A stretch of DNA of 53,289 nucleotides from a virus (taxonomy: Duplodnaviria; Caudoviricetes). Shown here in pieces: positions 17,982 through 44,398 of the stretch. Below the pieces are notes generated by a model. That model was not told the origin of the DNA, made no database searches, and saw nothing but the letters and a program-made list of their open reading frames with translations. The DNA lies in the IMG/VR virus record IMGVR_UViG_3300025652_000005, positions 1 to 53,289 of that record; one strand, given 5' to 3'. The stretch's first letter is position 1; each line of letters opens with the position of its first letter. A program made the position numbers and the translations under genes.

Positions 17982-18010
17982 GTAAAAAATCAGGTTAAAT
18001 GGAGTACCCG

Positions 18011-27000: not shown

Positions 27001-27445
27001 CAGCCTATCCAAAACTGTGACCACAGCTTTCGAGGATAATCCAGAGCTAGACCGCAATCTTGGCCTATACTTCGACGGCATGGTTGCGCTCGGCGGGATG
27101 GGCTTCGTAGGTGAGCTGATGTACGACGTTGCCTCGAACGCGGATAATGGTGCGTACGGTACGCAGCGTACGATGGAGGGCATCTTCGGCCCTACACTTG
27201 GCCTGTTCAACGACGCATCATCTGTCTTGCAGGGCGCACGTTCCGTCTATGATGGAGACGAGGCTAACGGTGAGAAGAGGTCAGCTATCCGCGAGATAGT
27301 CGGAAGAGTTCCGGTCCTCGGCGGCGTAAGTTGGGCAAAGGAAGGCATAATCGACGTTTTGGGTGGCGAACGTGGCCAAGCTGGGCGACCATCCTCCGGC
27401 GGTTACGGCAGCGGATATGGCAGCGGTTACGGCAGCGGTTACTAA
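18011..27445 (+). CDS. Giant internal virion/polyvalent protein (about 3144 aa) with zincin and ART-like domains
   Basis: GGAG SD before ATG 18011 (alternative start 17999); HELGH...PQEYFA zincin motif; G.VGRGAYVT...VTPVFV...GY ART-like pattern; helical C-terminal region; GSGY tail. Confidence 0.8.
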   Translation: MAEEFTNPFTDDIFGESASGSTSDYTNLSGADLVKDRGFLDDVRTYYETKGQTFSSTSEMLDEWYTDRRWKDSNFASAGKDLAEYANAGTNKQLMTKLSKAWRNAPERGSFASQVWDYGLATVADPINFIPYAGAASKAANVAKLARAAGATKNAAVSAAVKSGAKRGAVIEGGVGAGMGAGMDAIQQTREIQQGLSTEYDYGRTATSAAIEGTLSAGIGSVIGAFAARNPAREGLKWSNSNLAGEIAVQKTDIELSVKEADAILADPLRAPDHADAQEAKKNAELEVAKINAHAAKVDKLDEEAEALAARLASEGGNTPETKAAFDEKIAEFNAATSSSDIPEIELADPAVAAATPTAAEVVKKAEAEAEAKTTAAKPKPETTVEGDEAEAEATSTTEETPATEAEAEAEVSPAAEAATEAAPTTEAAPTTEASPTTEAAPEVLEVPAVEGRKFKFDKTKDESLQKALGKNLATHKNKVEKANEKNATALEPLTQEDLEKIVAGTPKGTKDGFIAPAGRKAIRRFLAAREGRVPSIKAASKNANADAKVDDASFVNPEVAEVKTAKEDFAKSEAAEAVAVEAEVEELANKANEVFARVIKLSKNSLNAIRINQSFEGIASGLEENVAAAVRRRIEDYKTNVIPVVEKLKRNEKVAALRVAEAGQAERMYGGDFKYTKSRIADSTAKSINALETDLEAGVTTSVSTSKKTGEKVVTKKVNSLLKPGTEIGLEGGGTITEGAGAFRRENETLLAAQSQAEMDVAQGKNKAVYSFPARAGMPLVGVRGVGRGKRGVATEGQVVYGAMTQIGKNDSKFKVYATEKMALESLGLSKGQIGIDTSKIKPIESTEELEAAREKAFKKFSKSKGDVDALEEDLAVADAQGREGGLDVDPAPEVVVKDGRGNVVKTDIPEAPTTRNGKVLVLLPRTTEVAPRVASKSQIASDAGVAALLGGKPASLFRIGYVPAEINGKSAQSQATKRNLIRDNFEPLDEANSFEFTPSAEPEAEMPARPLTQKEADNTVIDISALASTPEGKTVAQFLFQGDNIANAKSLDGLIAPTFDEFLKSKPTLNRLQENLNFLERDDFKITTTLGDKEVEIPLSFRIKALNALHTVIKAEAPHGVKKPTVDIEASISSLKKVMSGVGEKVSNQIEYLLRQAVPIDKAPIFGSPSDGGSAGSVFVYGAKSEDYNKVMLDMSSFDADGQRTGITGSYTVMHELGHWMYENVLDAETKGEFWGNLDKFYDENGRFTEGASEVEGGLTALEKLTPSVEVDGVRAGVANGKTNPQEYFANQFSLYMHHKFNSPLATANANVLKKAARVLQKLWLKMTNRDIIDPEMEMMFDKLIADKDVALQKQFTFPVKATTSVGKTLESRFIQIKDALRDFEAAIQNYPDTSDPEKMATSARALSNVFNGMSMTKKTKGYLVRKAGNVASDRAALDRSTGVLKLMNGKQLRGMRAISKAINEATIRTDSRISQAGDDMEVFGGAYHSEMEASLVDLYNSSMKEFTEELKTSMNDMFMDIEYGDMEAFLPSENLLSLRASYNINGPILAKKKNFEQKIKREVNRQRGTFSRSLSRAMKATGKANAKAFKGDIVAGTKGSEANSYNLEESVREYGRQIGADGVPTAFGKKLANRAKHLINTQVDDVNLTEEEQAIYHTWQSKTVGKGAKGLANGAKIDELTMALSITIDGGEIKGIGGTPEQIQNITRHVIKERYKARKSKAALKDKNVTDAIEIEQLQEAGVAFENGIPQNANFTMRGFLRGITHRAQDVEYNARTLTARLARLDAILPQSVDDLTYKGFRKAIRLAGVNLTRDGDITQSVRLVSESLYGSNVVSQSSRNAISKYASILDREPADVFSEIVTESVDTLSSKDQIKAMRRSMVGEDLDGVDELLGEIEDNLVDALSYVFNGLVSSAPARNRFYGIAFPEDLFSTGGTQKASTRSRYQSDVPTEYASDYAYELLDNYSKAARSSIEEFTGGNVRVFYRNNDTNGSVGRGAYVTSRPTNTLENMAGDIISSAPEANQDDVADYVDALIELRGQVNAARRDPMSSSEYFERMYALDDALSQEIGELGARMDTNVTPVFVRDTTPAIFSGNMNSLSPIVQAMKGHYVERVASGMSGRDQANQIKAIRGNFTPAQMLDTLTDIAGGERQLREAMTEMGYTSLNIGPDKLVLKKSSVRDVRSQSFESSTPLLGEGGVEPALNGAIASQIFAGSDPIKVFSQGAKALEDAGVAPKAVDGMVSVARGRGMPKDAAAEIRKSNIYNPLRTNSRIMKRSGMSFLANFWEPEAGGGGHFERTNAKMGKFLMPMTRMLKELPDSAGIAKRYFQTGPVMMAESAMGAMGMAPKRRNTQPISHMRIVTALRNSDTASQLVGKEMETYQHIRSYLDNAVARLRASGNMVGEIKDNYFPQVWRKDLIEADPDRFKRGVSKYFMAENASMQGSEVLTQAEAMKRAGRLVEKLLDQDGVLSSPSKSLKSTSGKGNEDSLDFQRMMRLQEFPEFTDFDSPDTLAPFLENDLLVSMTKYSDSIEHRIDLTEEFGPANHGFHDYIAILADPMHGKQTIATLLSSNKILKANHSRMGGSGEGELDRVFTDTFFMAPIKDKYVAEQAAKSLIEKASNGASVAEMQAEIMGILDAKISNTPEAAQIRNNFSKRAAAIANALVDTKGLTKITSQDNVKHAQGFMNAAMRKPVDGQHGLYSMKNASKWLRGVNAVTLLSFTTLTSLADLALPLIRTGDLKSYYTALKQYAREPAYRDMIRNVGAATENAVHQRLTVAHGVDSTQFMTGFFNSTLLTPWTDSMRNVAAAVSYEHVKAQHRILREAPSTRQGRIARKILQQEGLQELIEDSSIDLDLILESRGSANEHPLNDKLATSLIKLTNQMIFTPNPNDLPLWGATPLGAIAMQLKSYPLMMQRMVNGVVAEAFAGSTPANRASNFAKAFVGQSDNRLGPLGALLVAGPAFGAASVAVKDVVQGRGGEDNRDFALRERSLSKTVTTAFEDNPELDRNLGLYFDGMVALGGMGFVGELMYDVASNADNGAYGTQRTMEGIFGPTLGLFNDASSVLQGARSVYDGDEANGEKRSAIREIVGRVPVLGGVSWAKEGIIDVLGGERGQAGRPSSGGYGSGYGSGYGSGY
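19274..19327 (+). repeat. 18-bp tandem repeat x3 (AAPTTE) in a linker of the giant protein
   Basis: gcagctccaactactgag x2 plus a variant copy; GAGGCT repeats at 19175-19243. Confidence 0.85.
27398..27442 (+). repeat. 12-bp tandem repeats encoding a GSGY C-terminal tail
   Basis: ggcagcgg(t/a)ta(c/t) x3 before the stop. Confidence 0.85.
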
Positions 27446-28033: not shown

Positions 28034-28256
28034 GAGTGGTTTTCCCCATGCGTACGGCGTCGATCTCTAGCTGCGTAGCCAAGCACTTCAGTTCTACGAG
28101 CCGCTCCTTCTCGTGGCGCAGCTTCGTACGCGCGCGGTGCACATCGTCTGGGTCAACCGGATCAAGCGCCTCGATGCGGTCAAAGATGCTTTCGATCTCT
28201 GCTTCCTTGCGGATGATACCCTGACGCGCGATGCTCAGTTCGTTTAGTGTATCCAT
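28026..28256 (-). CDS. Hypothetical coiled-coil protein (76 aa)
   Basis: Start MDTLNELS is coupled to the upstream stop. Confidence 0.6.
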   Translation of the reverse strand: MDTLNELSIARQGIIRKEAEIESIFDRIEALDPVDPDDVHRARTKLRHEKERLVELKCLATQLEIDAVRMGKTTHV

Positions 28257-29083
28257 TAGTTTTTCTCCGTGGGTCTGAGCATTTCGTATTCGCCGCAAAC
28301 TTCTACGGCCTCTCGGTTCGTTAGTTTGCACGTCCAGCCGCCGTCCTTGTTGGCGAAGCTGTTCGTACAAAAGTGACAGGCGGGAGTAACGTCTGGGATT
28401 TCCCAGCAACTTTTCCTTTTAAAGCACGACTTGCAGTTCCAGCTTTCTGGTTCGGTTGCGCATCGTCCCGCCTGCCCATCAAGCGTAGCTTGTATCTTTA
28501 TGTACATCGTGTCCCATTCTTCTTGATCGAAGAGGACAACTTCAGCGTGATATTGAGAGTTATTTTTACAGTAAGATACAAACAAGCTACGCTCAATTCT
28601 CATCATCGCCATCATCATTTGCATCTGGCGATAATATTTTCTGTGCGAAACCTTCACACCGTACGACACGGTTTTCTTAAAGTTCGCATCGTTCATACTT
28701 TTGATCTCAAGGATCATTGGACCCGTGCCGTCTTCGAAGTCGGCCAGCCCATCCGTGTTACAGACGACATGCCCACCGAGCCATTCCGCTCGGTGTTGCC
28801 TGCCAGTAACTTCGTCTTTTTCGTACACCCGCAAGTTGGCTTTGTTCTTTAGATCGCGAACAACCCAGTCCTCGATCCTGTGCCCAGCAAAGAATATTCT
28901 TTTTAACTGGGGGTCAGGGTCAACGTCTGGAAACCCGCGAAGGCTGAGAGCCATCTGTGCGATGCACTCAGTCCCCGCCATCGACGCCCCGATATAGGCA
29001 CGGGCTACGCCTCGGTCTTCGTTGGCGTAGCCTTCGTCGATGGCATCAATTAGTGCCTGAGCTTGTGGGTGTACTGGGTGCAT
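28256..29083 (-). CDS. Cas4-like PD-(D/E)XK exonuclease with Fe-S/Zn cysteines
   Basis: YIGAS, DGL...LEIKS and Y.QMQ motifs; CKSCFKRKSC cluster. Confidence 0.85.
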   Translation of the reverse strand: MHPVHPQAQALIDAIDEGYANEDRGVARAYIGASMAGTECIAQMALSLRGFPDVDPDPQLKRIFFAGHRIEDWVVRDLKNKANLRVYEKDEVTGRQHRAEWLGGHVVCNTDGLADFEDGTGPMILEIKSMNDANFKKTVSYGVKVSHRKYYRQMQMMMAMMRIERSLFVSYCKNNSQYHAEVVLFDQEEWDTMYIKIQATLDGQAGRCATEPESWNCKSCFKRKSCWEIPDVTPACHFCTNSFANKDGGWTCKLTNREAVEVCGEYEMLRPTEKN

Positions 29084-29533
29084 TTAAAAGGGAATTTCAT
29101 CGTCTAAGGGCGCACTTGAGCCGCTGGTCTGAGCCTTACCACCTGTGGGCGCAAAGTGATAAGATACCTTACTGTTGGTCTTACCGTTGTACTCCTCGGA
29201 TTTGACCATGATACCGACCTTCTTACCCTTGAAGAAGGAAACGCTTGGGGCTTCGTTCCCGTCGCTTCCAAGGATCATAAGGAGCTCTTTCAGTTGCTTC
29301 TTGCCAATCTCTGTCGCAGCAGGCGAGTTGCCGTGAAAGACATAAATCCACTGACGAATACCGCCATCGTTGTTACTATATGATAGTACCAACCGCGCAG
29401 TGTTCTTAGCGTCGTCCCGCTCGACGGACGCATCGGTGATAGTCACCTCATGCTTGCCGATTGGCAGAACTTTATTGCGCGAAACATCGACACCGGACAA
29501 ATCCATGCCCTCTAATCCAAGAAAATCACTCAT
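29084..29533 (-). CDS. Single-stranded DNA-binding protein (DUF669-like)
   Basis: LP.G.H.V.I pattern; acidic DDEIPF C-terminus; next to Sak4. Confidence 0.8.
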   Translation of the reverse strand: MSDFLGLEGMDLSGVDVSRNKVLPIGKHEVTITDASVERDDAKNTARLVLSYSNNDGGIRQWIYVFHGNSPAATEIGKKQLKELLMILGSDGNEAPSVSFFKGKKVGIMVKSEEYNGKTNSKVSYHFAPTGGKAQTSGSSAPLDDEIPF

Positions 29534-30317
29534 TGTTTGTTGCTCCATTTCCATTGTATTTGGCGAACTCTTTGTCGCTCATGTAGATACGTTCGATTAA
29601 ATCAGTGACATCATCGCACTCCTCAAAGGGTGCGAGGCGGCGGTGAGGATCACGGGTCTTGCCGTGCCAGCCATTGACTTGATCTGTCACAAGATAACGA
29701 CGTACGGCCATCTTGCCGTTCTGCTCGGAGGTCTTACGCACCAAGCAAAATACGTTGTCATACAGGGCAGGGATTAGTTTCTGCACCTTCTTCTGAACCA
29801 TCATCGGCCAGTAGTTTGTCGTGCCGTTGTCGTCCGTCTCTTCAGCGGCCAGAGCGGTAATGAGTACGTGCATGTCCAGATCGCGCACCCACTTCAAAGC
29901 AGCGGTAATTTTGCGCTCGTAAAGGCTCCACTTCTCAAAACCGTTCTTCGCGTCAGCGCCAAGCTCGGCTTCGACATCTGCGAAGCACTTCTGAGAAAGC
30001 TCGGTCGCACTATCAATGGCAATCCATTTGTAACCCGCTTCCTTAAACTCTTTGGACATGACAAACTTAGTCAGGTCTCGAAAGCTGTACTCGCCTTCCT
30101 TCGTGGGTCGGTCGAAGGTGGTGAACGGAAGGTAATCGCAAGCGATGTCTGCGATGGACGACAGCCCACTTTCGCCCGATAGGATCAGACCTTTGCCAAA
30201 ACGCTTGGCGTAGTTAGCGCACTGTGTAGTCTTGCCCGAACCGTGCATTCCGTACACCAGCGTCTTGCTGGCTCCGACGACACTAATGTCGTTAGTTTTG
30301 AGTGGAGTAATCTTCAT
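29526..30317 (-). CDS. Sak4-like ssDNA-annealing ATPase (AAA_24)
   Basis: LVYGMHGSGKTT Walker A, IAIDS Walker B, GKTR arginine finger. Confidence 0.85.
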   Translation of the reverse strand: MKITPLKTNDISVVGASKTLVYGMHGSGKTTQCANYAKRFGKGLILSGESGLSSIADIACDYLPFTTFDRPTKEGEYSFRDLTKFVMSKEFKEAGYKWIAIDSATELSQKCFADVEAELGADAKNGFEKWSLYERKITAALKWVRDLDMHVLITALAAEETDDNGTTNYWPMMVQKKVQKLIPALYDNVFCLVRKTSEQNGKMAVRRYLVTDQVNGWHGKTRDPHRRLAPFEECDDVTDLIERIYMSDKEFAKYNGNGATNNE

Positions 30318-30736
30318 GATTGAACCTTTATAGTTGGTGCGCCACATCCGATTGTGAGCGCTTTTTTCAAAACTTCCTGCACGTCAAGCGGCGCAGCATC
30401 TAACTTCTTGCGATCAACTGTGAAGGACTGTGAGACGCAATCGGGCAGGCCGCTTGCTTCGTACGTATCTTTCAACAACTTTTTGTCCCAAACAAATTTC
30501 TCAGGAATACGGACGACAAGTGTACGACCATCCTCCATTTCAATAGCGAACTCGCCCACTTCTTCGGGTAAGTCTGCGACCAAAATTTCTTTGATATAAT
30601 CCAATGAGACCTTCGCGACATCAAGTTTCGCAAGGCAATCAGCGTATTGCTGTGCGGCTTGTTTTAATCTTGCTGATTTTGGGGGCTGCGGAGCCGGGAG
30701 CCAAATGTCTCCGAATATTAGGCCGTCTTCCTTCAT
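30314..30736 (-). CDS. Hypothetical protein of the recombination operon
   Basis: AAGGA SD; ATGA-coupled to Sak4. Confidence 0.7.
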   Translation of the reverse strand: MKEDGLIFGDIWLPAPQPPKSARLKQAAQQYADCLAKLDVAKVSLDYIKEILVADLPEEVGEFAIEMEDGRTLVVRIPEKFVWDKKLLKDTYEASGLPDCVSQSFTVDRKKLDAAPLDVQEVLKKALTIGCGAPTIKVQS

Positions 30737-30828
30737 GAGATTGTCCTTTGAGATTAAATTTTAAAACATAAGTTGTGCCTGAGTATCGTATATGTTACGC
30801 CGTTAGTTGTTGCAAGAGGAAAAAAACA
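30737..30828. promoter_or_regulatory. Divergent promoter region with operator-like AACATAAGTTGTGC
   Basis: AT-rich gap between divergent operons; the 14-mer is identical to 33276-33289. Confidence 0.55.
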
Positions 30829-31113
30829 ATGGGCTTCAAAATAAAAGAACTAATTGACGATCTCGGCGGCGCGCCATCTTTGGCTAAGAAGCTGAATGTG
30901 TGCCGTACAATTCCGTACGGTTGGATACGTCGCGACTTCATTTCCTCCACTTATCTTTCACAAATCAAAGAGGTCTGGCCGTTGGTCGATCTCAACTCAT
31001 ACTTCAAATCGGAGAAGATCAATGAAGACGACCTTAGAGGAAGCACTGGAATTACTAGATCGCGGTTGGGCAGTGATACCCATACTAGCGGAGACGAAGA
31101 GACCAGCAGTTAA
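30829..31113 (+). CDS. Cro/YdaS-like HTH regulator
   Basis: IDDLGGAPSLAKKLNVCRTIPYGW HTH; GAGGA SD. Confidence 0.75.
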   Translation: MGFKIKELIDDLGGAPSLAKKLNVCRTIPYGWIRRDFISSTYLSQIKEVWPLVDLNSYFKSEKINEDDLRGSTGITRSRLGSDTHTSGDEETSS

Positions 31114-32965
31114 GTGGGGCCACTACTGCGATGAGCTAAAGCTACCCACAGAAGATGAAGTAATAGAGTGGTTCGAGCGCTGGCCCGAAGCAAGCATTGC
31201 TGTAATCACTGGCCCTTTGTCTGGGCTGGTGATTGTAGACTGTGATAACGAGGACGCCTTGGATGAAGCCACACGGCTGGGCATGACCAAGACACCCATT
31301 AAAGTACGTACAAAAAAAGGCTGGCACTTTTACTTTAAGTTCCCGAAAGGTTCCGAGTGGATAAAAAACAGGGTAGGGGGCGACGGCAATGATGTAGACT
31401 GGCCGCGTTGCGACGGTCTGGATTTGCGTGGCTCCAAAGGATACGCCGTTGCTCCACCGTCAAAGAATTACCAGTGGGTAATAACCGAGGGAGCAGATTT
31501 AGATGATCTTCCGATCTACACGCCACCGAAAATAACCCCATTAGTACGTGCTAATAATGTCGTTAATCTGAACGAGTGGAAATTTGAGGGCATGTCGCTC
31601 GCAGATGTTAAGTTATCGCAGCCCATATGGGATCGTACGAAAGAACTTGTTGATCGCATTGGTAAGCTGCCAGAGGGCGGGGGCAACGGTAGAGATGATC
31701 GCTTGTACAAGTATATCTCTTCTCTTGCGGGTCAGGGGCTTGGCATCGAAGGTCTCACGTCAGGTGCCTTAGAGTTTATGGAAGCATTCTTTCAAAGCAA
31801 TGTGGAGCAAGGCAAGGTTGCTCAGATGTGTGAACGTGCTCTTGAGAATGAAATCCGCAAGGGTAATCTCCCTATGGACCTAGAGCCAGAAGAGGAAGAG
31901 AAGCCACGCAAGTACAAGCCAATCACGACCGCCGACCTTGATGACTTACGTGAGTACGTAGCGGGTATGGAGTTCTATATTGACCCTATAGTCCCCACCA
32001 AAGGTACTATACTTCAAGTTTTCGGGTACTCAGGCCACGGCAAGTCTATGTTCGTACGCCACCTGTTATATGCAGCAGCCGCAGGACAGCACAGGTTCGG
32101 CCCTTTCGATCTTGGTCAGAAGTCTCGCGTTCTCTACTTCGATTTCGAGAACAGCCGTGCAAACGTCGCGAACTTTCTTGATCGCAGCAAGCGCTCGTTC
32201 GGTGATGCGGGTGACAACTTCATGATTTGGGCACCGTTCAATGACGAGCACAGCATGAACCTGATGACGGAAGAGGGCGTACGAAACTTCCAAGCATGGA
32301 TTAAAGCAGTACGCCCGACCCATGTTGTGATCGATACGATCAGGTCAGCGTTTCCAGGTCTGCAAGAAAACAGCGCCGAGCAATGGAGCCACATCAACCA
32401 GCTTTGCTTAAAGATGCGTAACGCTGGGTTGGCGGTTTGGCTACTGCACCACAGCAACAAGCCGAGTGAGGGCACAGCTTCGGGTCGTGAGGCGGGTAGT
32501 TCAAACCAGCTTACCGTACTTGAGACCCAGATAAAAATAACGCAAGTGTTCTGGGATAAAGAGACAGCCGAGGTGAAGGCTGGTTTGTTTGAGGGCGACA
32601 TTCCCAACTCACCGTTCCACTCCCTGTCGTCCAAACCCGCGCTCGATGACAACGAACGGCTGGACGTGATGATGCAAGTGCGGTTCGGTAAGGTGAGGGA
32701 GTGGTCAGATGCACACGAACCATTTTATAATATGGCGTTCGCATCCAATATGGACGACGACACCGTTCGTATAGTAAGCGGCAAGACATCCAAGCAGCGA
32801 GCCATAACCTTCGCGCAGCAGTGGACAGACGCGCATGGTGTCACGCGCCCAGCGCTATCTGATGTTGAGATTTCGCAGCGGGTAGGGCGTCCGGTCAGTA
32901 CGGTTGCTGAGTGGACACACAAGTATCGCGAAGAAATGCCCAGCTACATAGCCAACGCTCAATAA
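31022..32965 (+). CDS. Bifunctional primase-polymerase (Prim-Pol) fused to RepA-like AAA_25 helicase
   Basis: GWAVIP, LVIVDCD, GWHFYF and DLRG..GY.VAPPS motifs; GYSGHGKS Walker A, VVIDT Walker B, HHSNK; GGAG SD. Confidence 0.9.
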   Translation: MKTTLEEALELLDRGWAVIPILAETKRPAVKWGHYCDELKLPTEDEVIEWFERWPEASIAVITGPLSGLVIVDCDNEDALDEATRLGMTKTPIKVRTKKGWHFYFKFPKGSEWIKNRVGGDGNDVDWPRCDGLDLRGSKGYAVAPPSKNYQWVITEGADLDDLPIYTPPKITPLVRANNVVNLNEWKFEGMSLADVKLSQPIWDRTKELVDRIGKLPEGGGNGRDDRLYKYISSLAGQGLGIEGLTSGALEFMEAFFQSNVEQGKVAQMCERALENEIRKGNLPMDLEPEEEEKPRKYKPITTADLDDLREYVAGMEFYIDPIVPTKGTILQVFGYSGHGKSMFVRHLLYAAAAGQHRFGPFDLGQKSRVLYFDFENSRANVANFLDRSKRSFGDAGDNFMIWAPFNDEHSMNLMTEEGVRNFQAWIKAVRPTHVVIDTIRSAFPGLQENSAEQWSHINQLCLKMRNAGLAVWLLHHSNKPSEGTASGREAGSSNQLTVLETQIKITQVFWDKETAEVKAGLFEGDIPNSPFHSLSSKPALDDNERLDVMMQVRFGKVREWSDAHEPFYNMAFASNMDDDTVRIVSGKTSKQRAITFAQQWTDAHGVTRPALSDVEISQRVGRPVSTVAEWTHKYREEMPSYIANAQ

Positions 32966-35194: not shown

Positions 35195-35592
35195 ATGAGA
35201 CTTCAACTACATCTATCGGACGAGCGGGCGAGTTCTTCGCCTCATCCATCCTCCAAACTTACGGCATCCACACCGTTCATGTGGCAATCCCCGACGACGA
35301 TCTGTGGTGCCTCTCGCCGGACGGCAGGATGCTTCGCGTACAAGTAAAGGCCACAATGTCTACGCATGTAGATCGACCGGGATCAGGATCGGACCTCCCC
35401 ATCTATCGCTTCCGAACGGGACGACACAAGAACCGCTACCACGGTATATACATATTCGTAGCGCTCGACGTGAGGCTCTGCAAAGCAATGCGATGGTCTG
35501 AGCGTAGTCCACCCCTATCAATAAGATTTGTGGCCTCCGAGTTCACGCCGGAAGACGAAAGCGAAAGTATCAGGAGGGAATTTCTAAAATGA
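35191..35592 (+). CDS. PD-(D/E)XK endonuclease
   Basis: GRAGEF...DL...RVQVKAT motif. Confidence 0.7.
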   Translation: MNETSTTSIGRAGEFFASSILQTYGIHTVHVAIPDDDLWCLSPDGRMLRVQVKATMSTHVDRPGSGSDLPIYRFRTGRHKNRYHGIYIFVALDVRLCKAMRWSERSPPLSIRFVASEFTPEDESESIRREFLK

Positions 35593-36751: not shown

Positions 36752-36882
36752 GCATACTAATGGAGACAACTCCCTTGACACAAGTGTATCGTAACCACTA
36801 CAACAGTGAGATCGGCAATCCTGCCGCCCATCAGCCTGATGTTGGTGGAACTAACTATACTAATCAAATGGAGACATCCGTT

Positions 36883-37344
36883 ATGCACAACATGCGATAC
36901 GAATTGGCTCGTATTGAGGCTAAAATTGATATCCTTACGAACCTTGTCCTTAAAATGGACAGCCCAAACACAGCAACAACTTCAGCATCAGTAAGCGCTT
37001 CAGCTTCCGAGCAAGCATTGGTGCGATCACTGACGACAAAGCAGCACGTAACCGCCCAACTTCTTATTGCTGGGTGGCAAAACAAAGACATCGCGAAGTT
37101 AATCAACATCGGTGAGAACACCGTGAAGCTGCACGTACGAGCCGTGTGCAAAAAAGTTGGCACCAAAACGCGCGGTCAAGCTGCACTAATAATGAATGAC
37201 ATCTTAGAAAAACTAGACCCCGAAGATTACAAGCGAGCGTCCGGCGGCATCCCAATAGACTGGGCACGGACGCTGGTGTCGGATGCACAGGATCATTACG
37301 CTCCACTATACAGAAGCGCGGGGGGGACTGATGGCACTATTTAA
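36883..37344 (+). CDS. LuxR/GerE-family HTH transcriptional regulator
   Basis: LTTKQ...GWQNKDIAKLINIGENTVKLHV...KKVG..TR; GGAGA SD favours start 36883 over 36760. Confidence 0.85.
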   Translation: MHNMRYELARIEAKIDILTNLVLKMDSPNTATTSASVSASASEQALVRSLTTKQHVTAQLLIAGWQNKDIAKLINIGENTVKLHVRAVCKKVGTKTRGQAALIMNDILEKLDPEDYKRASGGIPIDWARTLVSDAQDHYAPLYRSAGGTDGTI

Positions 37345-38341
37345 ACCTAAGAAAAGGAGCGGTGGTCAGTTCTACCAAGCGGTCGGCGTCTACCAAGGCA
37401 TCCGCGTACGCCAGTCTCTTGGCACCGCTGACTACGCCTTGGCCCGTGAGGCTTGCGCTGAGTACGAACACAAAGTTCTTACAGGCCAAGTCAAGGTCGG
37501 TGCAAAATCGACGCTTGGTAATCAAACTAAGTTCAAAACCATCGCAACCCGCTACCTAAAGTCCCCAATGACAGGCACGTCCAAGTCAACGCGCGACTAC
37601 GTGATGATGCTTGCCGACCACTTTGGTGACTATCAGATCAAATCCATCGACCTCAACGACATCGAGGAGTACGTAGAAGAGCGCCACGTCAACCGTGGCA
37701 ACTCGAACTCAACGATCCGTCGAGACCTAACCCAACTCCAAAGCATTCTAAACTACGCTCACGGCCTTGGGTTACGCGATGCGATCAAACTAAAGAAGCC
37801 AGCCGAAGGCGAACACAAGACGGACACCTTCAGCAAGGACGAGATCAACAGCATCTTCCCTCTGTTGCCGCCCGACATCCGCCGCATCTGTACGTTCCTC
37901 TTGAACACAGGCGCGCGGCCCATCGAAGCGATGACATTGCAATACGATGCAGTCGATTGGTCAAACAACACTTGCGTCCTTGGTTGCTACAAAGGAAGGG
38001 GCGGCATCTTACGAACGCGCAGAATGCCGCTCAACGAATTGGCTTTGGATACTATCCCCAAGTCACAACCACCACCTTCGACGCATGTGTTTCTAAATCA
38101 GGGACGCCCGTTCGAAAGTAACAAGCAAGTCGGCTATCATTGGCGTAAGGTAACTGACAAACTGGGCATAAATAAAAGCCCATACACATTGCGCCATACA
38201 TTCGCTACGCGCCTCGCGCGTAACGGGACACCACCGAAAGTAATCGCTGATCTGCTGGGTCACTCCGACCTAAAGATGGTGATGCGCTACATGAATACTA
38301 CCTACGAAGACCACAAGTCAGCAGTCATGTCTCTCCAATAG
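37331..38341 (+). CDS. int: Tyrosine recombinase (phage integrase)
   Basis: TGARPIE (R), YTLRHTFAT (HxxR variant), LLGHSD.KMVMRY (H, Y). Confidence 0.95.
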   Translation: MALFKPKKRSGGQFYQAVGVYQGIRVRQSLGTADYALAREACAEYEHKVLTGQVKVGAKSTLGNQTKFKTIATRYLKSPMTGTSKSTRDYVMMLADHFGDYQIKSIDLNDIEEYVEERHVNRGNSNSTIRRDLTQLQSILNYAHGLGLRDAIKLKKPAEGEHKTDTFSKDEINSIFPLLPPDIRRICTFLLNTGARPIEAMTLQYDAVDWSNNTCVLGCYKGRGGILRTRRMPLNELALDTIPKSQPPPSTHVFLNQGRPFESNKQVGYHWRKVTDKLGINKSPYTLRHTFATRLARNGTPPKVIADLLGHSDLKMVMRYMNTTYEDHKSAVMSLQ

Positions 38342-38403
38342 CGTGCCTGCCACACAACTAAATAACACGACGAAAGTTAGTTAAGATAAAATGAAAAAAA
38401 GCA

Positions 38404-38432
38404 TTGCCAACCATTCGGTTCTAAACTACTCC
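38404..38432 (+). promoter_or_regulatory. Stable-RNA-like promoter for the tRNA half (TTGCCA-N17-TACTCC, upstream A-tract)
   Basis: -35/-10 pair ends 7 nt before the first G of the tRNA half; UP-like AAAATGAAAAAAA. Confidence 0.5.
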
Positions 38433-38439
38433 GACCAGC

Positions 38440-38481
38440 GGAGACGTGGCCGAGTGGACGAAGGCGCTCCCCTGCTAAGGG
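38440..38481 (+). tRNA. 5' half of tRNA-Ser(GCT); attP core, not a complete tRNA
   Basis: GGAGACGTGGCCGAGTGGACGAAGGCGCTCCCCTGCTAAGGG matches acceptor 5' strand, D arm and anticodon arm of bacterial tRNA-Ser(GCU); variable and T arms absent. Confidence 0.85.
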
Positions 38482-38598
38482 TCTCATACCTAACCTTTCC
38501 TAACTTTTGTTGTGTTATTCTTACCCCATTTGCATGCGCACTTGAGGAATTTAACGTCGTAAATCGACAGGTTTACACAGGAATAGGCACATAAAAAT

Positions 38599-39252
38599 AT
38601 GTCTTCTGAATTTAAAAAAGCATTAATAGAAATTGAGAGTGTGACATTACAAGGCAGCGCTTTCGCATCATCATCTGAAGGTAACGTGTTCGTTCCCGCT
38701 CGCATGATCGAAGTCTCTGATGTACGAGAGGGCGATATAATATTCGCAACTCTGCGAAAAAATTATCCAGACAAACAGGACATCGCGCCGTGGCTTTGCG
38801 CGCGTCTCCACACCGACCATCCCGAAACAATATTACTCGATGATCCAGATGAGGAAGCTCCTCAATCACCCCCACCACACGTCGCTTCTAATGTTGTGCC
38901 ACTTGTGCGGGGCACAGAACTAATCGACGCAGCGCGCGATCAAATGTTCTTAATATTGCTTGGCCTCACACAACCCGAACTAAACGACCTCGTTCTCGAC
39001 GTGGTACATCACGAAGCCTGCACAACCGAAGACATTCTCTTTTCAATCTTGTCAGTCAACTCAACTCGCAAAGAGGAGTTTAGTAAAGTCGAACGGTCTG
39101 CGCACGATCTAATTCAGAGGACCATTGAAACCTTGTACGACAGTGGAAAAATCCTAAAGGCAACATACACTTCCGTGACTGAAGGAAGCGTAAGCACAGA
39201 CCTTGTAACCTACTCGACTACACAACGTGCAGACGATGAAACTTTTTTCTAA
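38599..39252 (+). CDS. Hypothetical protein (OB-fold-like N-terminus, possible wHTH C-terminus)
   Basis: GSAFA...GNVFVP...GD.I.A pattern; isolated gene right of attP. Confidence 0.6.
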   Translation: MSSEFKKALIEIESVTLQGSAFASSSEGNVFVPARMIEVSDVREGDIIFATLRKNYPDKQDIAPWLCARLHTDHPETILLDDPDEEAPQSPPPHVASNVVPLVRGTELIDAARDQMFLILLGLTQPELNDLVLDVVHHEACTTEDILFSILSVNSTRKEEFSKVERSAHDLIQRTIETLYDSGKILKATYTSVTEGSVSTDLVTYSTTQRADDETFF

Positions 39253-39268
39253 ACGATAGATTAAATAT

Positions 39269-39308
39269 GTTGAGCGAAAACCAACTTCCGTTTTCGCTCA
39301 ACTTTTTA
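39269..39308. terminator. Terminator between convergent genes
   Basis: Perfect 13-bp stem GTTGAGCGAAAAC/GTTTTCGCTCAAC followed by a T-tract. Confidence 0.85.
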
Positions 39309-39587
39309 TTTGTCTGTCAGCATTTCGAAGGCGCGCTTCACTCTACTCAGTGGCGTACTCGCCCCTTCCATCTTCTCTTTGACGCGATCAATCAGCTTAG
39401 ATTTCCACTCATCATTCTTCATCGACATCACTAGACCGAGCACGAGCATGTCTCTCTCAGTCATATCGTTCGACAAGCCACACCTCACATAACCATCTGC
39501 GTCAACGGACAAAGCGGGTGCCTTGTCCGTCACGTACAATCTCTTACGTACGTATTTGATCTGTGCTTGAGTATCAGCGCTCATCAT
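39306..39587 (-). CDS. Hypothetical protein
   Basis: 93 aa, ATGA-coupled. Confidence 0.65.
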   Translation of the reverse strand: MMSADTQAQIKYVRKRLYVTDKAPALSVDADGYVRCGLSNDMTERDMLVLGLVMSMKNDEWKSKLIDRVKEKMEGASTPLSRVKRAFEMLTDK

Positions 39588-39772
39588 TCGCCCTCTTCAA
39601 AGATTGAATTTGCTAAGTCGATGGGCAACTCCACGGTCACTGACCTAAAGTTACACACCACACATTTTCGTTTGCGCTTAATAGTTTGGAAGCCGTACCC
39701 AATGTGCGGTCGGCTATCCCAAGTTGCCAATTTGTGCAGGCAATCGGGACAGTGAGATATGCTCTCGCCCAT
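39584..39772 (-). CDS. NrdR-like Zn-ribbon protein
   Basis: CPDC...DSR...RKRKC..C.FRSVTVE; GGAGG SD. Confidence 0.75.
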   Translation of the reverse strand: MGESISHCPDCLHKLATWDSRPHIGYGFQTIKRKRKCVVCNFRSVTVELPIDLANSIFEEGE

Positions 39773-40224
39773 CAGACCTCCACCAGTTGTACAACTTCTG
39801 GTACATAATCCTTTGCCAGTCGGACGTACTGCGTCGGCAGGCCCATTCCCTTGCGTGGCAGCGCAGCCAGGTATCCTTCCGAAGCCATCTGTGAAAGGTA
39901 CGAAGCGGCGGCTTCTCTCGTGATCCATCCTGTTTTATTCGCGCCCGTTGCTAACTCTTCCATCACCGTGCGTATCGTTACAAGTTCCCCGTCGCGTATG
40001 ACTGCAAGGATTTCCTGCCAAGCCTCGATCCTTCTCAACTTCGTACCCATCCTCTCGTAGTCTGCCTTCAACCGCGCCGCGTGACGGCTGGCAGCAGTCG
40101 GCTCGTCGCATGGCATTCTCGGACGCAAACCTTTCTTCACCATCTCCCGTTCAAACTTCATCATACGTTTAGCTAGACGCTCTTCTCCATCTGCGTGGCT
40201 GTCGCCAATCATAATATTAACCAT
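39772..40224 (-). CDS. Putative winged-helix DNA-binding protein
   Basis: 150 aa; helix-turn-helix followed by a wing-like GYL...Y pattern. Confidence 0.55.
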   Translation of the reverse strand: MVNIMIGDSHADGEERLAKRMMKFEREMVKKGLRPRMPCDEPTAASRHAARLKADYERMGTKLRRIEAWQEILAVIRDGELVTIRTVMEELATGANKTGWITREAAASYLSQMASEGYLAALPRKGMGLPTQYVRLAKDYVPEVVQLVEV

Positions 40225-40393
40225 CGATCTTACCCCGCATGTTTACCTTCACGATGTCTACAATCGAAAGAAGCTCATCCATCGTGTGCTTTCTTGGGTT
40301 GCCCGTAGCCTTAAACTCCATCTTCAAATTCTCCAGCTTGTACTCGATGCGCTTCAACGCATTCATTGTCTGCTCGTGTTGCTCAATATTCAT
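40217..40393 (-). CDS. Hypothetical protein (58 aa, MNIEQHEQTMNALKRIEYK...)
   Basis: Read from the sequence; AAGGA SD; ATGA overlap with the hydrolase stop. Confidence 0.6.
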   Translation of the reverse strand: MNIEQHEQTMNALKRIEYKLENLKMEFKATGNPRKHTMDELLSIVDIVKVNMRGKIDG

Positions 40394-40782
40394 CCGTTAG
40401 TTTCCTTATAAAAAATGTGTTGTCCGTATTGTGCAGTCTTCGTAAACGCCTTGGCCCAGTACGGGCTGGCGTAGATGGAGTGGTAAAACAGGACACCCTC
40501 TCCAACTTTTCTGGGTGTCCCCTCTTCCATCGCAAGTCGCGCAACATTGGCTGCGATTGCCCATGCCACTGGATCGCGCGGCGTGTCGCTCTTGCCATCG
40601 TGCGTCCAAGAGAATTGCTTGTGCTGCCAGACAACATCGCACACGTTGTCTGGATACTTCTCGCTTGCGACCCTGTTCAAAGTCACTTGCGCCACAGCCA
40701 TCTGACCATCGAAGCTCTCTGATCTGGCCTCGAAGTAGACGTTAATAGCGAGGCAAAGTGCCGCTTGTGTAATTAGAACCAC
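40390..40782 (-). CDS. SleB/Hydrolase_2 cell-wall hydrolase
   Basis: CLA.NVYFEARSE...VAQVTLNRV...QFSW...P.W...GQHIFY; GTG start with AGGA SD. Confidence 0.9.
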   Translation of the reverse strand: MVLITQAALCLAINVYFEARSESFDGQMAVAQVTLNRVASEKYPDNVCDVVWQHKQFSWTHDGKSDTPRDPVAWAIAANVARLAMEEGTPRKVGEGVLFYHSIYASPYWAKAFTKTAQYGQHIFYKETNG

Positions 40783-41005
40783 GTACGTATTCCTTTCTAA
40801 GATGCGGAAGTTTTTCATCGACCAGGCGCATGATGCGCTTGATCTTTTCTTCATCGGCGTGGCGTACGCGCTTTGATCGGATGACGTACGCTACGTGCCA
40901 CCACCAACCGTGCGGTCTCCATCCATCACAAAACGCATACCAACTGCGCTTCATCGTGGGCGAAGACCTATAGTCGAATGAGGTGGGCATTTTCAGTTCA
41001 CGCAT
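40742..41005 (-). CDS. Hypothetical Trp/Arg-rich protein
   Basis: 87-aa ORF overlapping the vWA gene stop. Confidence 0.5.
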   Translation of the reverse strand: MRELKMPTSFDYRSSPTMKRSWYAFCDGWRPHGWWWHVAYVIRSKRVRHADEEKIKRIMRLVDEKLPHLRKEYVRGSNYTSGTLPRY

Positions 41006-42845
41006 GAGCGTGACCCTGACTAATCAGCAGCTTTTCTAGGCTGCCGAGTAATGTTTCTCCAAGTTTATTGAAGTCCGTGAGCACAGATTTGCTAAACATT
41101 TTGCTCACATCAATACCGATACCGATGCCGATGACCTCGATACCTATGGCCTCCATTTCCTTGACCAGCGTGCTACACATATCCACCTCACGGTGTCTGC
41201 CGTTCGGTTCGCCATCCGTCAGCATGAGCAAAATCTTACGCGGCTCATGCCAACTCGACATCATATTCGCATACGTCATCAGCGCTGCGTAGCTTGGCGT
41301 ATCGCCCCCGACGGGTTGGAAGTTCAGCGTCGTCTGTAGCTTTAGATAGTTCTCGTGAGAATGTTTGTGTGTCACGATCCAAGGAAGATCACCCATCACA
41401 TCTCGACCGCCGTAAAGGCTTAGGCCACCCCATTCGGTCACATCGTACTTGACACCAGCACGACCGAGCGCATCATTCACAACGTGTACAGCCGACATTG
41501 TGTTGATTGAGCTCATGCTGGTCGAACCATCGACCGCAAGCATCAGCCGCGTCTCCGATGTTCGAACGTCTTCCGTACGTGCAAAGATGTTCTGATTACC
41601 CGCAACCAATTGCGACAACCTACGGCGATCAATACGCCCCGAACTGTACCCGCCCTCGTTGCGCTTACTCTCTTGGCTCATCAACAACCGCGCGAGCCTC
41701 GCACCGTACGCGCTGACATCCTTTCCGATTAGTGCCCGAGCACCCAAATTTTCTTGGGCCAGTAAGTCCTTGTGTTTGTCTGCGTTTCGCCATTGTCCAA
41801 CAACTATATCCTTCACACGGGCCTTTACGTTTGCAATCTGAACCTTTTGTCCCAGCGATTTCCACAGGTCTAGGTGCGTATCGTGTACCGCACTAAACTG
41901 CGTGCAAACCCTGCGCGTATTAGGCTTAGGGCCGTACTTACCAAACACGTCTTGCATGTTATCGGCTTTGCGATCCTCGGCATCTTCCATGCTGAAGCCC
42001 TTTGGCTTCGGCTTGTCAGCATCAGGCTTGTCAGCATCAGGCTTGCCATCACCATCACCCTCGCCGTCAACTTCCTCGCCTTCATCTTGGTCTGGCTTAT
42101 CCTGCCCCTTGCCCTTGCCCTCGCCATCACCATCCTCGCCCTCTGGGTTTGGCTTTGGATGGGTTGGCTTTGGCTGTGGTTCATCTTCCTCACCAAGCTC
42201 TTTGCCCAGCGCCTTGACCCGCTTGCTTATCTTCTTCGCAAGCTCGTAGCTTTCACCAGTATCCTCTGTCGCGTACATCTCCTTCGCAAACTTTCGAGCC
42301 TCTTTGGCTAGATCGTCAGGCATGTCCTCGATGTACTGATCGAGCGCATCGCTTTCGTACCCTGCATTGTGCCGTGCCTGTTGCAGCGCAGCGTACGGTA
42401 TCTCAGTCCACCACGTTTCGCGCCGTGCGGCGTTCTCTTCTGGGTTGTCCTCCCAGTGCTGGTTCTCGTTGCCCAACACGCTATCAACAGTCGCTTGCAA
42501 GCTACGCTTGGCACCTGAGTATTTCTCACATGCCTTGCGCTCCACCAGAACATCCTCGCAAGCGTTCCATATTCCATGCAGATGCTTGGGTGGCTTTTTC
42601 GCCTTTGCCAAACCGAAGTCGGTATCCGTTACATGCCCGACCTCATGGATGTGATAGCCTCTAGCTATCGCCTGATCCTTGGGTGTCATGGTTGCTGCCA
42701 TGTCCATTTCGGGAAGGTTGATTGTCTTGCCGTCGGTATGGGCACCTTGACCTATGAACGTGGTGCGTATGCCTTTCGTACCCATGATCTCCGACAACTT
42801 ATCGAACTCCGTTTTGAGTGCGGCCACTGAATTTTGGTTAAACAT
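40998..42845 (-). CDS. cobT: CobT-like protein (N-terminal HExxH domain, acidic linker, vWA domain)
   Basis: HEVGH...NACED; GRIDRRRL; MIDAS DGSTS and LTDGEP. Confidence 0.8.
   Translation of the reverse strand: MFNQNSVAALKTEFDKLSEIMGTKGIRTTFIGQGAHTDGKTINLPEMDMAATMTPKDQAIARGYHIHEVGHVTDTDFGLAKAKKPPKHLHGIWNACEDVLVERKACEKYSGAKRSLQATVDSVLGNENQHWEDNPEENAARRETWWTEIPYAALQQARHNAGYESDALDQYIEDMPDDLAKEARKFAKEMYATEDTGESYELAKKISKRVKALGKELGEEDEPQPKPTHPKPNPEGEDGDGEGKGKGQDKPDQDEGEEVDGEGDGDGKPDADKPDADKPKPKGFSMEDAEDRKADNMQDVFGKYGPKPNTRRVCTQFSAVHDTHLDLWKSLGQKVQIANVKARVKDIVVGQWRNADKHKDLLAQENLGARALIGKDVSAYGARLARLLMSQESKRNEGGYSSGRIDRRRLSQLVAGNQNIFARTEDVRTSETRLMLAVDGSTSMSSINTMSAVHVVNDALGRAGVKYDVTEWGGLSLYGGRDVMGDLPWIVTHKHSHENYLKLQTTLNFQPVGGDTPSYAALMTYANMMSSWHEPRKILLMLTDGEPNGRHREVDMCSTLVKEMEAIGIEVIGIGIGIDVSKMFSKSVLTDFNKLGETLLGSLEKLLISQGHAHA
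42010..42045 (-). repeat. 15-bp tandem repeat (KPDAD) in the CobT-like linker
   Basis: ggcttgtcagcatca x2 plus a partial copy. Confidence 0.8.
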
Positions 42846-42868
42846 TTGTGTGATCCTTGATTGATTGA

Positions 42869-44398
42869 TTAGTTGCTGATGCGATCCATGATGCCTGTCA
42901 CAGCAATGCTGTCGCCTTCATCAATGGTATTCATCACGTTCATTTCGAGCGCTCGCTTCACCGCCACCGTGGTGCCCAAGCGTCCCTCGAAGTCGGCAAC
43001 GTACTTGCCTATCGTGATCGTGTTGCGTGGTGAGATCGGCGTTGCTATCGTGCCATCCGCAAACGCTTCGCGGTACGTCTCCAAGAAACTACAGATCAGT
43101 TGCTCGGCTTGCTTCGACAGGGCGGGTGCAAACTTCTTGACCAGCATCATCTCGTCATCCACGTTCAAGTAGTCTACCTTGATGAACACGGGGAACCTGT
43201 TGATCGACGCTCTCGATTGTACCTTCACCGCACTTGCGTACAGTCCAGAACTATCTCCCGTACCCACCGTGTTGGCTGTCGCCATGATGTGAAAGTCAGG
43301 GTGCGGGTGAACCATGCGACCGCCATCTTCCATAAGACGCAGCGCACCACCTTCCAGCACGGGTTGCATCACATAGCTGATATCAGCACGTATCGCATCG
43401 TACTCGTCGAGCAACATAACGACGGGCAGTTGCATCGCCTTGGGCAAGAAGCCATCCACGAACTTGGTGATCTGGTTGCCATCATCGTCGGTGGTCACGC
43501 TCATGGCACCTACGAAGTCAGGCCGCTCGATGGCGCTGTCCATGTTGGCACGCATCATCATGCGTCCGGTGTGCGCACACACCTGAGCAATGAACGTCGT
43601 CTTTCCCGTACCCGTGTGACCAGTCAACCAAGCATTGTTCTTGGTCTCTATGGCCCACAACGCATCCGCTAGGTTGCTTCTGTTGAAGATGTAATTGTGA
43701 TCCTTGGCAGGCACCAACGGGTTGTCGTACTCCCAATCGTACACGGTGATCTCCATGTCCAAGAGGCGGTCTTGGATACCGAACACTACCTGTGCATTGA
43801 CCCTGCGCGGCGTACCTTCTGGGATGTCACCGCTTGCGGGTACAATAGCCGCCACCGCAACGGGCGCTGGCTTGTTCCGCAAGGCCACCACCTCATTGAG
43901 CAGCCCTTGCAGATCGTTCATCTCGCCATTGGTAGCAACACGCAGCAACACGTTCGCCGCTGTCGCAATGTCATCTGCCACATCGTACGTAGGCGACGTA
44001 GGCGACGTGCCGAGATCGTCAGGGATGTAATCGGAGATGCTTGCACTGTTGAGGTCTAATTCATTGCTCCAAGGCCACATCTCGCACATGCTTCCGTCAG
44101 TGGGGACGCACTTGAAGGCATCAAGGATACTATGAAGGCCTTCGTCGCACATCAGCTCCTCCAGAAGATAACCCAACGCCTTGGCGCTCATGCGGTCGAA
44201 AATCTGTGACACACTAACGCTGCGCATCTTCTTGCTTGCTATGTGGGTGCTGTTCACGAGAGCAGAACCATTTGCTTCGGTGGCAATCGCGGTGAGGTCT
44301 ATGCCCTTGAATTCTGCGGCTGAGTAGATCGCTCCGCGCAGAATTGTCTGAGCCTTGCGTGCATCGTGGGTATCTATAATGTTTTGAACAGTTGTCAT
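42869..44398 (-). CDS. cobS: CobS-like MoxR AAA+ ATPase
   Basis: GHTGTGKT Walker A, LLDEYD Walker B, ATANT.G.G, NRF and ISPR motifs. Confidence 0.85.
   Translation of the reverse strand: MTTVQNIIDTHDARKAQTILRGAIYSAAEFKGIDLTAIATEANGSALVNSTHIASKKMRSVSVSQIFDRMSAKALGYLLEELMCDEGLHSILDAFKCVPTDGSMCEMWPWSNELDLNSASISDYIPDDLGTSPTSPTYDVADDIATAANVLLRVATNGEMNDLQGLLNEVVALRNKPAPVAVAAIVPASGDIPEGTPRRVNAQVVFGIQDRLLDMEITVYDWEYDNPLVPAKDHNYIFNRSNLADALWAIETKNNAWLTGHTGTGKTTFIAQVCAHTGRMMMRANMDSAIERPDFVGAMSVTTDDDGNQITKFVDGFLPKAMQLPVVMLLDEYDAIRADISYVMQPVLEGGALRLMEDGGRMVHPHPDFHIMATANTVGTGDSSGLYASAVKVQSRASINRFPVFIKVDYLNVDDEMMLVKKFAPALSKQAEQLICSFLETYREAFADGTIATPISPRNTITIGKYVADFEGRLGTTVAVKRALEMNVMNTIDEGDSIAVTGIMDRISN

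Follow-up and report, generated by a model that had tools for sequence, protein, structure and literature searches.

Strand exchange within the 7-nucleotide (nt) anticodon loop of a transfer RNA (tRNA) gene, with the symmetric stem around it, reportedly defines one class of integration site, the anticodon-loop class of Williams (2002). Zhao and Williams are said to have described, also in 2002, an integrative element with reversed target-gene orientation that carries the 5' part of its tRNA. Further elements that recombine with the 5'-distal part of tRNA genes are on record, and archaeal cases are cited beside that of Zhao and Williams. For tRNA targets, the Phage_Finder paper gives the usual 3' rule (PMC1635311), and Islander accepts 5' fragments upstream of the tDNA (PMC4383910). 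In several HTVC019P-type pelagiphages, a phage-borne partial 5' end complements the split host tRNA, according to sequencing, polymerase chain reaction and metagenome reads; the text of that preprint makes no mention of a promoter (bioRxiv 10.1101/410191). Replacement of the tRNA 5' end is rare but already described, and here we present a further case, in the viral record IMGVR_UViG_3300025652_000005 (Caudoviricetes) of IMG/VR. The window, that is the stretch of DNA analysed, is the whole record of 53,289 bases, which has direct terminal repeats and an estimated completeness of 100%. Positions 38352-38519 are very probably the attachment site (attP) of a temperate phage that integrates into the single-copy tRNA-Ser(GCU) gene of Planktomarina-like Rhodobacteraceae and rebuilds the tRNA in doing so.

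The core of this site is a block at 38440..38481 (plus strand) that begins 99 nt 3' of the stop codon of a tyrosine integrase gene (int, 37331..38341, plus strand) and that, by exact genome matches, represents the 5' 42 nt of tRNA-Ser(GCU). It comprises the acceptor strand, the D arm and the anticodon arm, GGAGACG TG GCC GAGTGGACGAA GGC G CTCCC CTGCTAA GGG, with the 5' strand of the anticodon stem at 38467-38471, the loop CTGCTAA at 38472-38478, the anticodon GCT at 38474-38476 and the final GGG at 38479-38481. A preliminary description of the sequence had reported such a 42-nt half tRNA downstream of int, ending 3 nt past the loop, and it is indeed present at that place. That description had also expected a match of 38440-38481 to genomes to reveal the host, and the match gave exact tRNA-Ser starts in Planktomarina and related Rhodobacteraceae. 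The block has 42/42 identity in seven genome contigs, which come from four Planktomarina metagenome-assembled genomes (MAGs), Rhodobacteraceae IMCC1909, Yoonia tamlensis and one uncultured Rhodobacteraceae MAG. ARAGORN predicts an intact 90-nt tRNA-Ser(gct) that starts with the block in six of the seven contigs; the seventh is cut by the contig end. Identity stops at 38481, 3 nt past the anticodon loop, where the hosts read GGGAG and the phage GGGTC (AGTAGG versus TCTCAT after the GGG). Further 3' the phage (GGGTCTCATACC) does not match the hosts (GGGAGTAGGCCC), and the attP block does not cover the 3' part of the tRNA.

ARAGORN found no tRNA gene in the 53,289-bp window, a complete tRNA of the disrupted isotype included. 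As the record is complete with terminal repeats, the tRNA fragment sits in a free phage genome. In all five host genomes the tRNA-Ser(GCU) gene has a single full-length match, and the second tRNA-Ser match per genome, with 78-81% identity over 77 nt only, is taken to be another isoacceptor. As tRNA-Ser(GCU) is single-copy, the rebuilt copy must be expressed. An Rfam search of the region gave nothing above threshold; a suhB match (16.5 bits, gathering score 41) was dismissed as chance. An open reading frame (ORF) at 38391-38594 that spans the core was judged spurious, and a 16-nt direct repeat (38390/38609) was ascribed to chance as it is not seen in the sequences of relatives.

An integrase search returned 27 viral loci and 58 metagenome loci. 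ARAGORN predicts a tRNA in none of the former; among the latter it predicts tRNA-Ser(gct) in five, tRNA-Thr(ggt) in five and none in 48. In the five Ser loci (L055-L058 and L066) the tRNA-Ser(GCT) is intact and lies some 100 nt beyond int. Eleven of the 58 metagenome loci were compared with the window in a blastn alignment. All five Ser loci lose their homology to it exactly at 38481, and in the free-form contigs that reach the site (L037-L040, 4/4) the alignment continues to 38649-42333; in L076 and L077 it stops short of the site. The tRNA 3' half and the next 48 nt of the junction loci have 98.6% identity to the Planktomarina locus L002, and the outer flank has 98% identity to the genome of L002, 3.8 kb from its tRNA-Ser. 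The order across the junction is phage int, left arm, promoter-like element and 5' half, followed by the host 3' half and a Planktomarina-like flank. The intact tRNA at the end of the element in these metagenome contigs is thus made of the element's 5' part and the host's 3' part, which largely supports the earlier proposal that integration rebuilds the tRNA from a phage 5' half. These int-proximal junctions, the sequence identity and the layout across the family described below are direct observations.

The integrated forms are of two kinds. L055-L058 come from four assemblies with 99-99.97% mutual identity; their nearest free-form contigs are L045 (96.2%), L042 (91.7%) and L041 (89.4%), and their int has a frameshift near residue 300-310. 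L066 keeps only the equivalent of window positions 37910-38481, at 94.8% identity: the last 143 Int residues (210-352), the left arm, the promoter-like element and the 5' half, which is now part of the rebuilt tRNA. On its left side the int fragment abuts a truncated amine-oxidase gene, with a malic-enzyme gene as well, and this left join is repeated in a second assembly, L077, at 94-96% identity. The G+C content of the L066 left flank (48.7%) is like that of Planktomarina loci. The host flanks of L066 and L055-L058 share 99.4% identity over up to 2 kb, and their phage sides have about 95% and 74% identity to the window, respectively. As the tRNA is single-copy, a cell that holds only the remnant would have to express tRNA-Ser from the phage-derived promoter. 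From these remnants it would seem that an essential single-copy tRNA gene can permanently acquire its promoter and 5' half from a phage. The right flank of L066 (query L066:4621-6626) also includes a dispersed repeat of about 200 nt (L066:4924-5128, offsets 304-508), with many matches at 75-89% identity in several Planktomarina genomes.

Two free-form contigs bear on the point of exchange. L042 and L045 have the loop CTGCGAA for CTGCTAA, by which the anticodon would become GCG, and the -10 hexamer CACTTC for TACTTC. The related integrated form L055-L058 has host-like bases at these variant positions, with the loop CTGCTAA. This difference, which is one between strains, fits an exchange at or 5' of the variant base. 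As the 42 nt are identical in both partners, the crossover point cannot be read from the sequence; the constant right boundary of identity in the Ser type and in the Arg type described next suggests that the core lies in the anticodon loop and stem.

The same layout recurs across the phage lineage, with a tRNA-Ser(GCT) 5' half after int in 24 distinct related attP sequences. In the 23 that extend far enough, tRNA identity ends 1 nt (AAG/AGAA), 2 nt (AAGG/TA, AAGG/AA), 3 nt (AAGGG/T) or 4 nt (AAGGGA/T) past the loop; the remaining row, L060, breaks off with its contig 2 nt past the loop. The acceptor strand varies by group (GGAGACG, GGAAACG, GGAGATG or GGAGCTG), as does the D loop. In a sister integrase clade (about 45% identity) the half tRNA is instead the 5' half of tRNA-Arg(CCT), which ends GGG/T, 3 nt past the loop. 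An integrase tree with 37 rows places the members of each attP type together in a single group; the tree is unrooted, and its L032 row is unreliable with a long branch. That the tRNA 5' half always stops at the anticodon loop is as expected of an attachment-site identity block and speaks against a chance relic.

Other relatives differ in what follows int. L086 and L088-L091 have a whole-looking tRNA-Thr(GGT) between the arms, about 90 nt after int. These loci form a clade sister to the Arg type; their integrase has about 45% identity to that of the window, and their tRNA acceptor stem, judged by eye, has 2-3 mismatches. For the tRNA-Thr-type relatives, the best match of a host search in 151 genomes had 92% identity over a stretch of 75 nt. 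L081 and L087 have a degenerate 5' part, and their stretch from the anticodon arm to the 3' end looks like a tRNA. One integrase family, with the same int-to-tRNA orientation throughout, may have 5'-type, whole and 3'-type attP sites. A further integrase clade (L030, L067-L075, L092 and L094; 55-61% identity) has no tRNA-like piece after int; there int is followed by the palindrome GCTGGC...CTCCCC-ATATA-GGGGA...GCCAGC and then by a homologue of the gene that follows attP in the window. The contigs L014, L060, L041, L033 and L008 stop within the tRNA piece or at its border, which suggests assembly branching, through the shared repeat or a mixture of free and integrated forms.

As the block of identity extends from the loop back to the tRNA start, the element would have to bring a promoter. 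Promoter-like elements lie ahead of the tRNA piece where the preliminary description had placed them: an A7 tract in an A/T-rich, UP-element-like stretch (38394..38400), the -35-like hexamer TTGCCA (38404..38409, -36..-31 from the tRNA start) and the -10-like hexamer TACTCC (38427..38432, -13..-8), all on the plus strand. The hexamers are separated by 17 nt, and a further 7 nt lead to the tRNA start. We compared 24 distinct phage sequences and seven host loci in an ungapped alignment. Among the phages, TTG is found at -36..-34 in 24/24 and C at -33 in 23/24; T at -13 is found in 23/24, A at -12 in 24/24 and C at -8 in 24/24. The spacer columns -18..-14 hold 0.03-0.42 bits. All seven host loci have the same spacing, with TTGTCC or TTGTGA, 17 nt, TAGACG, TAAACG or TAGACC, 7 nt and the tRNA, and their upstream regions have A/T runs at the place equivalent to that of the A7 tract. 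As the spacing is common and the spacer sequence differs, the phage element is not a plain copy of host DNA. The remnant L066 has both hexamers as in the window and a changed spacer. The phage thus appears to supply a putative promoter with the native spacing of the host tRNA-Ser, and the earlier claim that the rebuilt tRNA lies downstream of a phage promoter gains comparative support from the 24 phage sequences and seven host loci. As the -10 element ends at -8, general promoter geometry would put the transcription start at, or a few bases from, the mature 5' end of the tRNA.

The tRNA piece is flanked by inverted repeats, reported before as 20 bp long and confirmed here. The left (P) arm (38352..38385, plus strand) and the right (P') arm (38495..38519, plus strand) share an inverted repeat of 25 nt (38361-38385 with 38495-38519) that is 84% complementary, and its inner 20 nt have two G-T mismatches only; a shorter inverted repeat pairs 38352-38362 with 38505-38515. 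An inverted repeat is found at similar offsets around the core in 20/20 distinct related arm pairs, and both sides co-vary. On the simplest reading, the arms are probably arm-type Int binding sites. The 20-bp stem of the arms is present in the minimum-energy fold of the int 3' region, and over the 20 distinct pairs the mismatches on the plus strand are G-U in 15 cases versus A-C in 6, which is only a hint as the rows are related. Lambda sib relies on a pairing that exists only before integration. By analogy, it is a possibility that the repeat here pairs only in unintegrated int transcripts, as a sib-like switch. Short tandem repeats are also found beside the host gene, 20-100 nt past the tRNA-Ser 3' end in L002-L007, such as AACCACACACGTT three times in L006 and TTGTACCCAG twice in L003 and L004. 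They resemble arm sites that would belong to other elements, integrated in the usual way at the 3' end of this tRNA.

We infer from this how integration would proceed. Recombination would take place within the shared 42-nt block, most likely in or beside the anticodon loop. At the int-proximal junction, the phage 5' half would be joined to the host 3' half, and the rebuilt tRNA would stand behind phage DNA. The host promoter and host 5' half would be shifted to the far end of the prophage (attL). The phage promoter TTGCCA-N17-TACTCC would then take over transcription of the rebuilt tRNA.

Several results weigh against this reading. The preliminary description had called for both attachment junctions; the int-proximal one is present in five metagenome contigs and ends at 38481, but searches of viral contigs, four sequencing runs and genomes did not find attL, in which the host promoter and 5' half would precede the phage right arm. 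Relatives of int were found neither in 23 Planktomarina genomes nor in 401 Rhodobacteraceae genomes, and there is thus no lysogen among these finished genomes. As int is frameshifted in L055-L058 and truncated in L066, all the integrated forms seen are decaying. The left flank of L066 has no close match (best 67%) in the genome to which its right flank has 98% identity; a search at E 1e-60 found none in that genome, and the best of 391 scored genomes reached 75%. The junctions come from metagenome assemblies, in which the shared 42-mer could in principle have caused a false join. The -10 hexamer TACTCC is weak by the rules of Escherichia coli, and a generic sigma-70 scan did not flag the TTGCCA/TACTCC site, as the second hexamer lacks the final T.

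Further searches for the integrated state gave the following. Neither the viral contigs nor the four runs showed a host 5' fragment moved to the far end of the element; the metagenome scan used int only. No phage-host junction was found in the four sequencing runs compared with the window. A 41-nt stretch of the Planktomarina tRNA-Ser promoter had no match in viral contigs. In the five exact-match hosts, no relative of int was found at E 1e-10 apart from one unrelated integrase with 26% identity. The Logan contigs break off within the tRNA piece, and tRNA-Ser genes of other bacteria account for most pieces at 38440-38481. One 795-nt contig (run X8, which shares its sample with a possible source run) covers 37985-38779 in attP form, and a loose end in run X9 is the promoter of an uninfected Planktomarina.

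The doubts about the junctions would be explained if the contigs were assembly chimeras across the 42-nt repeat and the phage never, or no longer, integrated here. One Planktomarina-like right flank occurs with two phage-derived left sides that differ from each other, the genome that matches the right flank of L066 lacks its left flank, and several contigs and Logan unitigs break within the tRNA piece, all of which would suit chimeras. However, the junction of L055-L058 is identical in four assemblies, and its phage side differs by 4-10% from the closest free-form contigs and has an int frameshift of its own. Moreover, the int fragment of L066 and L077 adjoins chromosomal-type genes in two diverged assemblies, and the int-attP layout with its arms, together with selection on the 5' half and promoter, is hard to explain without integration. 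We therefore regard chimeric joins as improbable. It seems very unlikely, too, that the phage integrates as described but the tRNA is transcribed by read-through from int and upstream genes, with TTGCCA/TACTCC not a working promoter. Such read-through would fit the lack of a predicted terminator-like site between int and the tRNA piece, and the distance of TACTCC from TATAAT. Against it, the hexamer positions are the most conserved of the upstream columns while the spacer is free to vary, the phage spacing copies that of the host, and the hexamers are intact in the L066 remnant despite its changed spacer. The tRNA is also single-copy, whereas prophage int operons are usually not constitutively transcribed.

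The free genome raises another explanation, in which the tRNA 5' half would serve mainly as a small RNA or as the leader of the gene that follows attP (38599..39252, plus strand; here gene X), for example as a decoy versus tRNA-targeting defences, with integration secondary. There, transcription from the promoter would pass through the 42-nt piece and on into gene X, with no predicted terminator on the way, and gene X always adjoins attP. However, the leader shows no structure signal (z-score -1.15), the acceptor strand follows the tRNA variant, identity always stops at the anticodon loop in the manner of an attachment block, and the junction contigs exist. This explanation strikes us as scarcely credible, and integration into tRNA-Ser(GCU), with the tRNA rebuilt behind phage DNA, is the reading that we retain.

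Gene X itself is conserved, with a predicted OB-fold N-terminal domain and a helical or winged-helix-like C-terminal domain. It directly follows attP in the Ser, Arg and no-tRNA clades (tblastn). It matches no Pfam or PHROG family, and a search of PDB sequences gave no match (best E 0.84). With its protein as query, no relatives were found in viral contigs, and a search with its alignment gave only contigs already found through int, all with int upstream. Its AlphaFold2 model, from an alignment of 18 rows, has a mean predicted local distance difference test score of 75.8 and an N-terminal beta barrel. Foldseek matches to this model are weak (E 4e-3 to 3e-2) and include the Rho RNA-binding domain, IF1, CspA and STN1, of which STN1, an OB plus winged-helix protein, is the top match (E 4e-3). 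No terminator-like site is predicted between the tRNA piece and gene X, and the leader has no unusual fold. In the minimum free energy fold the start codon of gene X pairs with the tRNA acceptor strand; this pairing was rejected, as it is not seen in the sequences of relatives. As the 42 nt are identical, the RNA from the tRNA +1 position into gene X would be the same in the free phage and in attL, and the promoter alone would differ.

This arrangement raises the tentative and somewhat doubtful idea that integration swaps two look-alike promoters, with consequences for tRNA-Ser, gene X and the turnover of host promoters. In the free genome, the tRNA-type promoter of the phage would transcribe the 42-nt piece and gene X. 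In a lysogen, it would serve the host's only tRNA-Ser(GCU), and the host tRNA promoter would drive gene X, which would then come under the growth-rate control of the host. After decay of the prophage, the tRNA gene would permanently keep the phage promoter and 5' half as its front, as in L066 and L077. If so, the phages of this lineage would turn over the tRNA promoters of their hosts. The preliminary description had proposed that the prophage could control tRNA-Ser and that the host tRNA promoter would read into the gene at 38599; we put both forward as conjecture.

The wider genome is that of a tailed phage. A map based on a PHROG scan of 38 ORFs includes the terminase (47822), the portal (49526), the major head protein (6019), a recombination and replication block (28256-32965), RusA (33585), an amidase (35589) and a spanin (36236). 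Around the site, the gene order is regulator, int, the intergenic attP region, the single plus-strand gene at 38599-39252 and then a minus-strand block. The regulator gene (36760..37344, plus strand), directly 5' of int, encodes a LuxR/GerE-type helix-turn-helix protein (PF00196 GerE, E 9.6e-10), and a homologue occupies the equivalent position in the prophage contig L056. The int product matches PF00589 with 77.3 bits (cut-off 27.1) over residues 198-341, and phrog_1 with E 1.6e-52. Its ORF opens at 37283 and has 352 amino acids (aa), and relatives align from the Met at 37331, residue 16-17 of this ORF. The catalytic motif of tyrosine recombinases is Arg...His-x-x-Arg...His/Trp...Tyr. In the Int translation, read by eye without a reference alignment, TGARP, LRHTFATR, LLGHS and MRYM follow in the expected order. 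Among GenBank phage records there is no match to the window at the DNA level, and the best Int identity is 28%.

Elsewhere in the window, the structural region has a single ORF of 3148 aa (17999-27445, plus strand) without a PHROG match at E 1e-5. Two adjacent genes within 40998-44398 (minus strand) match cobaltochelatase CobT and porphyrin biosynthesis/ATPase PHROGs; the CobT-like gene matches phrog_17276 (cobaltochelatase CobT subunit), with its best match to phrog_1576 of unknown function, and the other matches phrog_249 and phrog_16448. A second endolysin-like gene (40390-40854, minus strand) is separate from the amidase at 35589.

Our analysis ties an uncultured phage lineage, which has no close relative among GenBank phage records, to a host, Planktomarina, and to an exact site of integration. 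Planktomarina is an abundant group of marine roseobacters. With this site, the rare mode of integration that replaces a tRNA 5' end gains a well-documented case in bacteria and, to our knowledge of a limited literature, unusually clear comparative evidence for an element-borne promoter with host spacing. Tools for prophage mapping that seek displaced 3' fragments only would miss this lineage.

Like the element reportedly described by Zhao and Williams in 2002, the phage carries the 5' rather than the 3' part of a tRNA; here a whole lineage of tailed phages with genomes of about 50-57 kb does so, with comparative support for the promoter. A tyrosine integrase beside attP, a block bounded by the loop and arm repeats are shared with conventional tRNA integrases that replace the 3' end, but here the block extends from the loop to the 5' end. 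HTVC019P-type pelagiphages also have marine alphaproteobacterial hosts and an attP just 3' of int (bioRxiv 10.1101/410191); unlike the present phage, they are small T7-like podoviruses of SAR11 that use other tRNAs (Cys, Leu and Arg), and their rebuilt tRNAs often have base changes. With dusA-specific integrases (PMC4482086), the 5' end of the target is replaced and putative -35 and -10 elements lie upstream after integration, as here, whereas the target is protein-coding and the integrase family a different one. In the tRNA-dependent lysogeny of mycobacteriophages (PMC10865867), the phage likewise compensates for the loss of an essential tRNA, but with a complete tRNA gene elsewhere and without rebuilding the target. 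As the phage described here has no tRNA gene, this kind of lysogeny does not apply to it; it would instead rebuild the tRNA gene that it enters.

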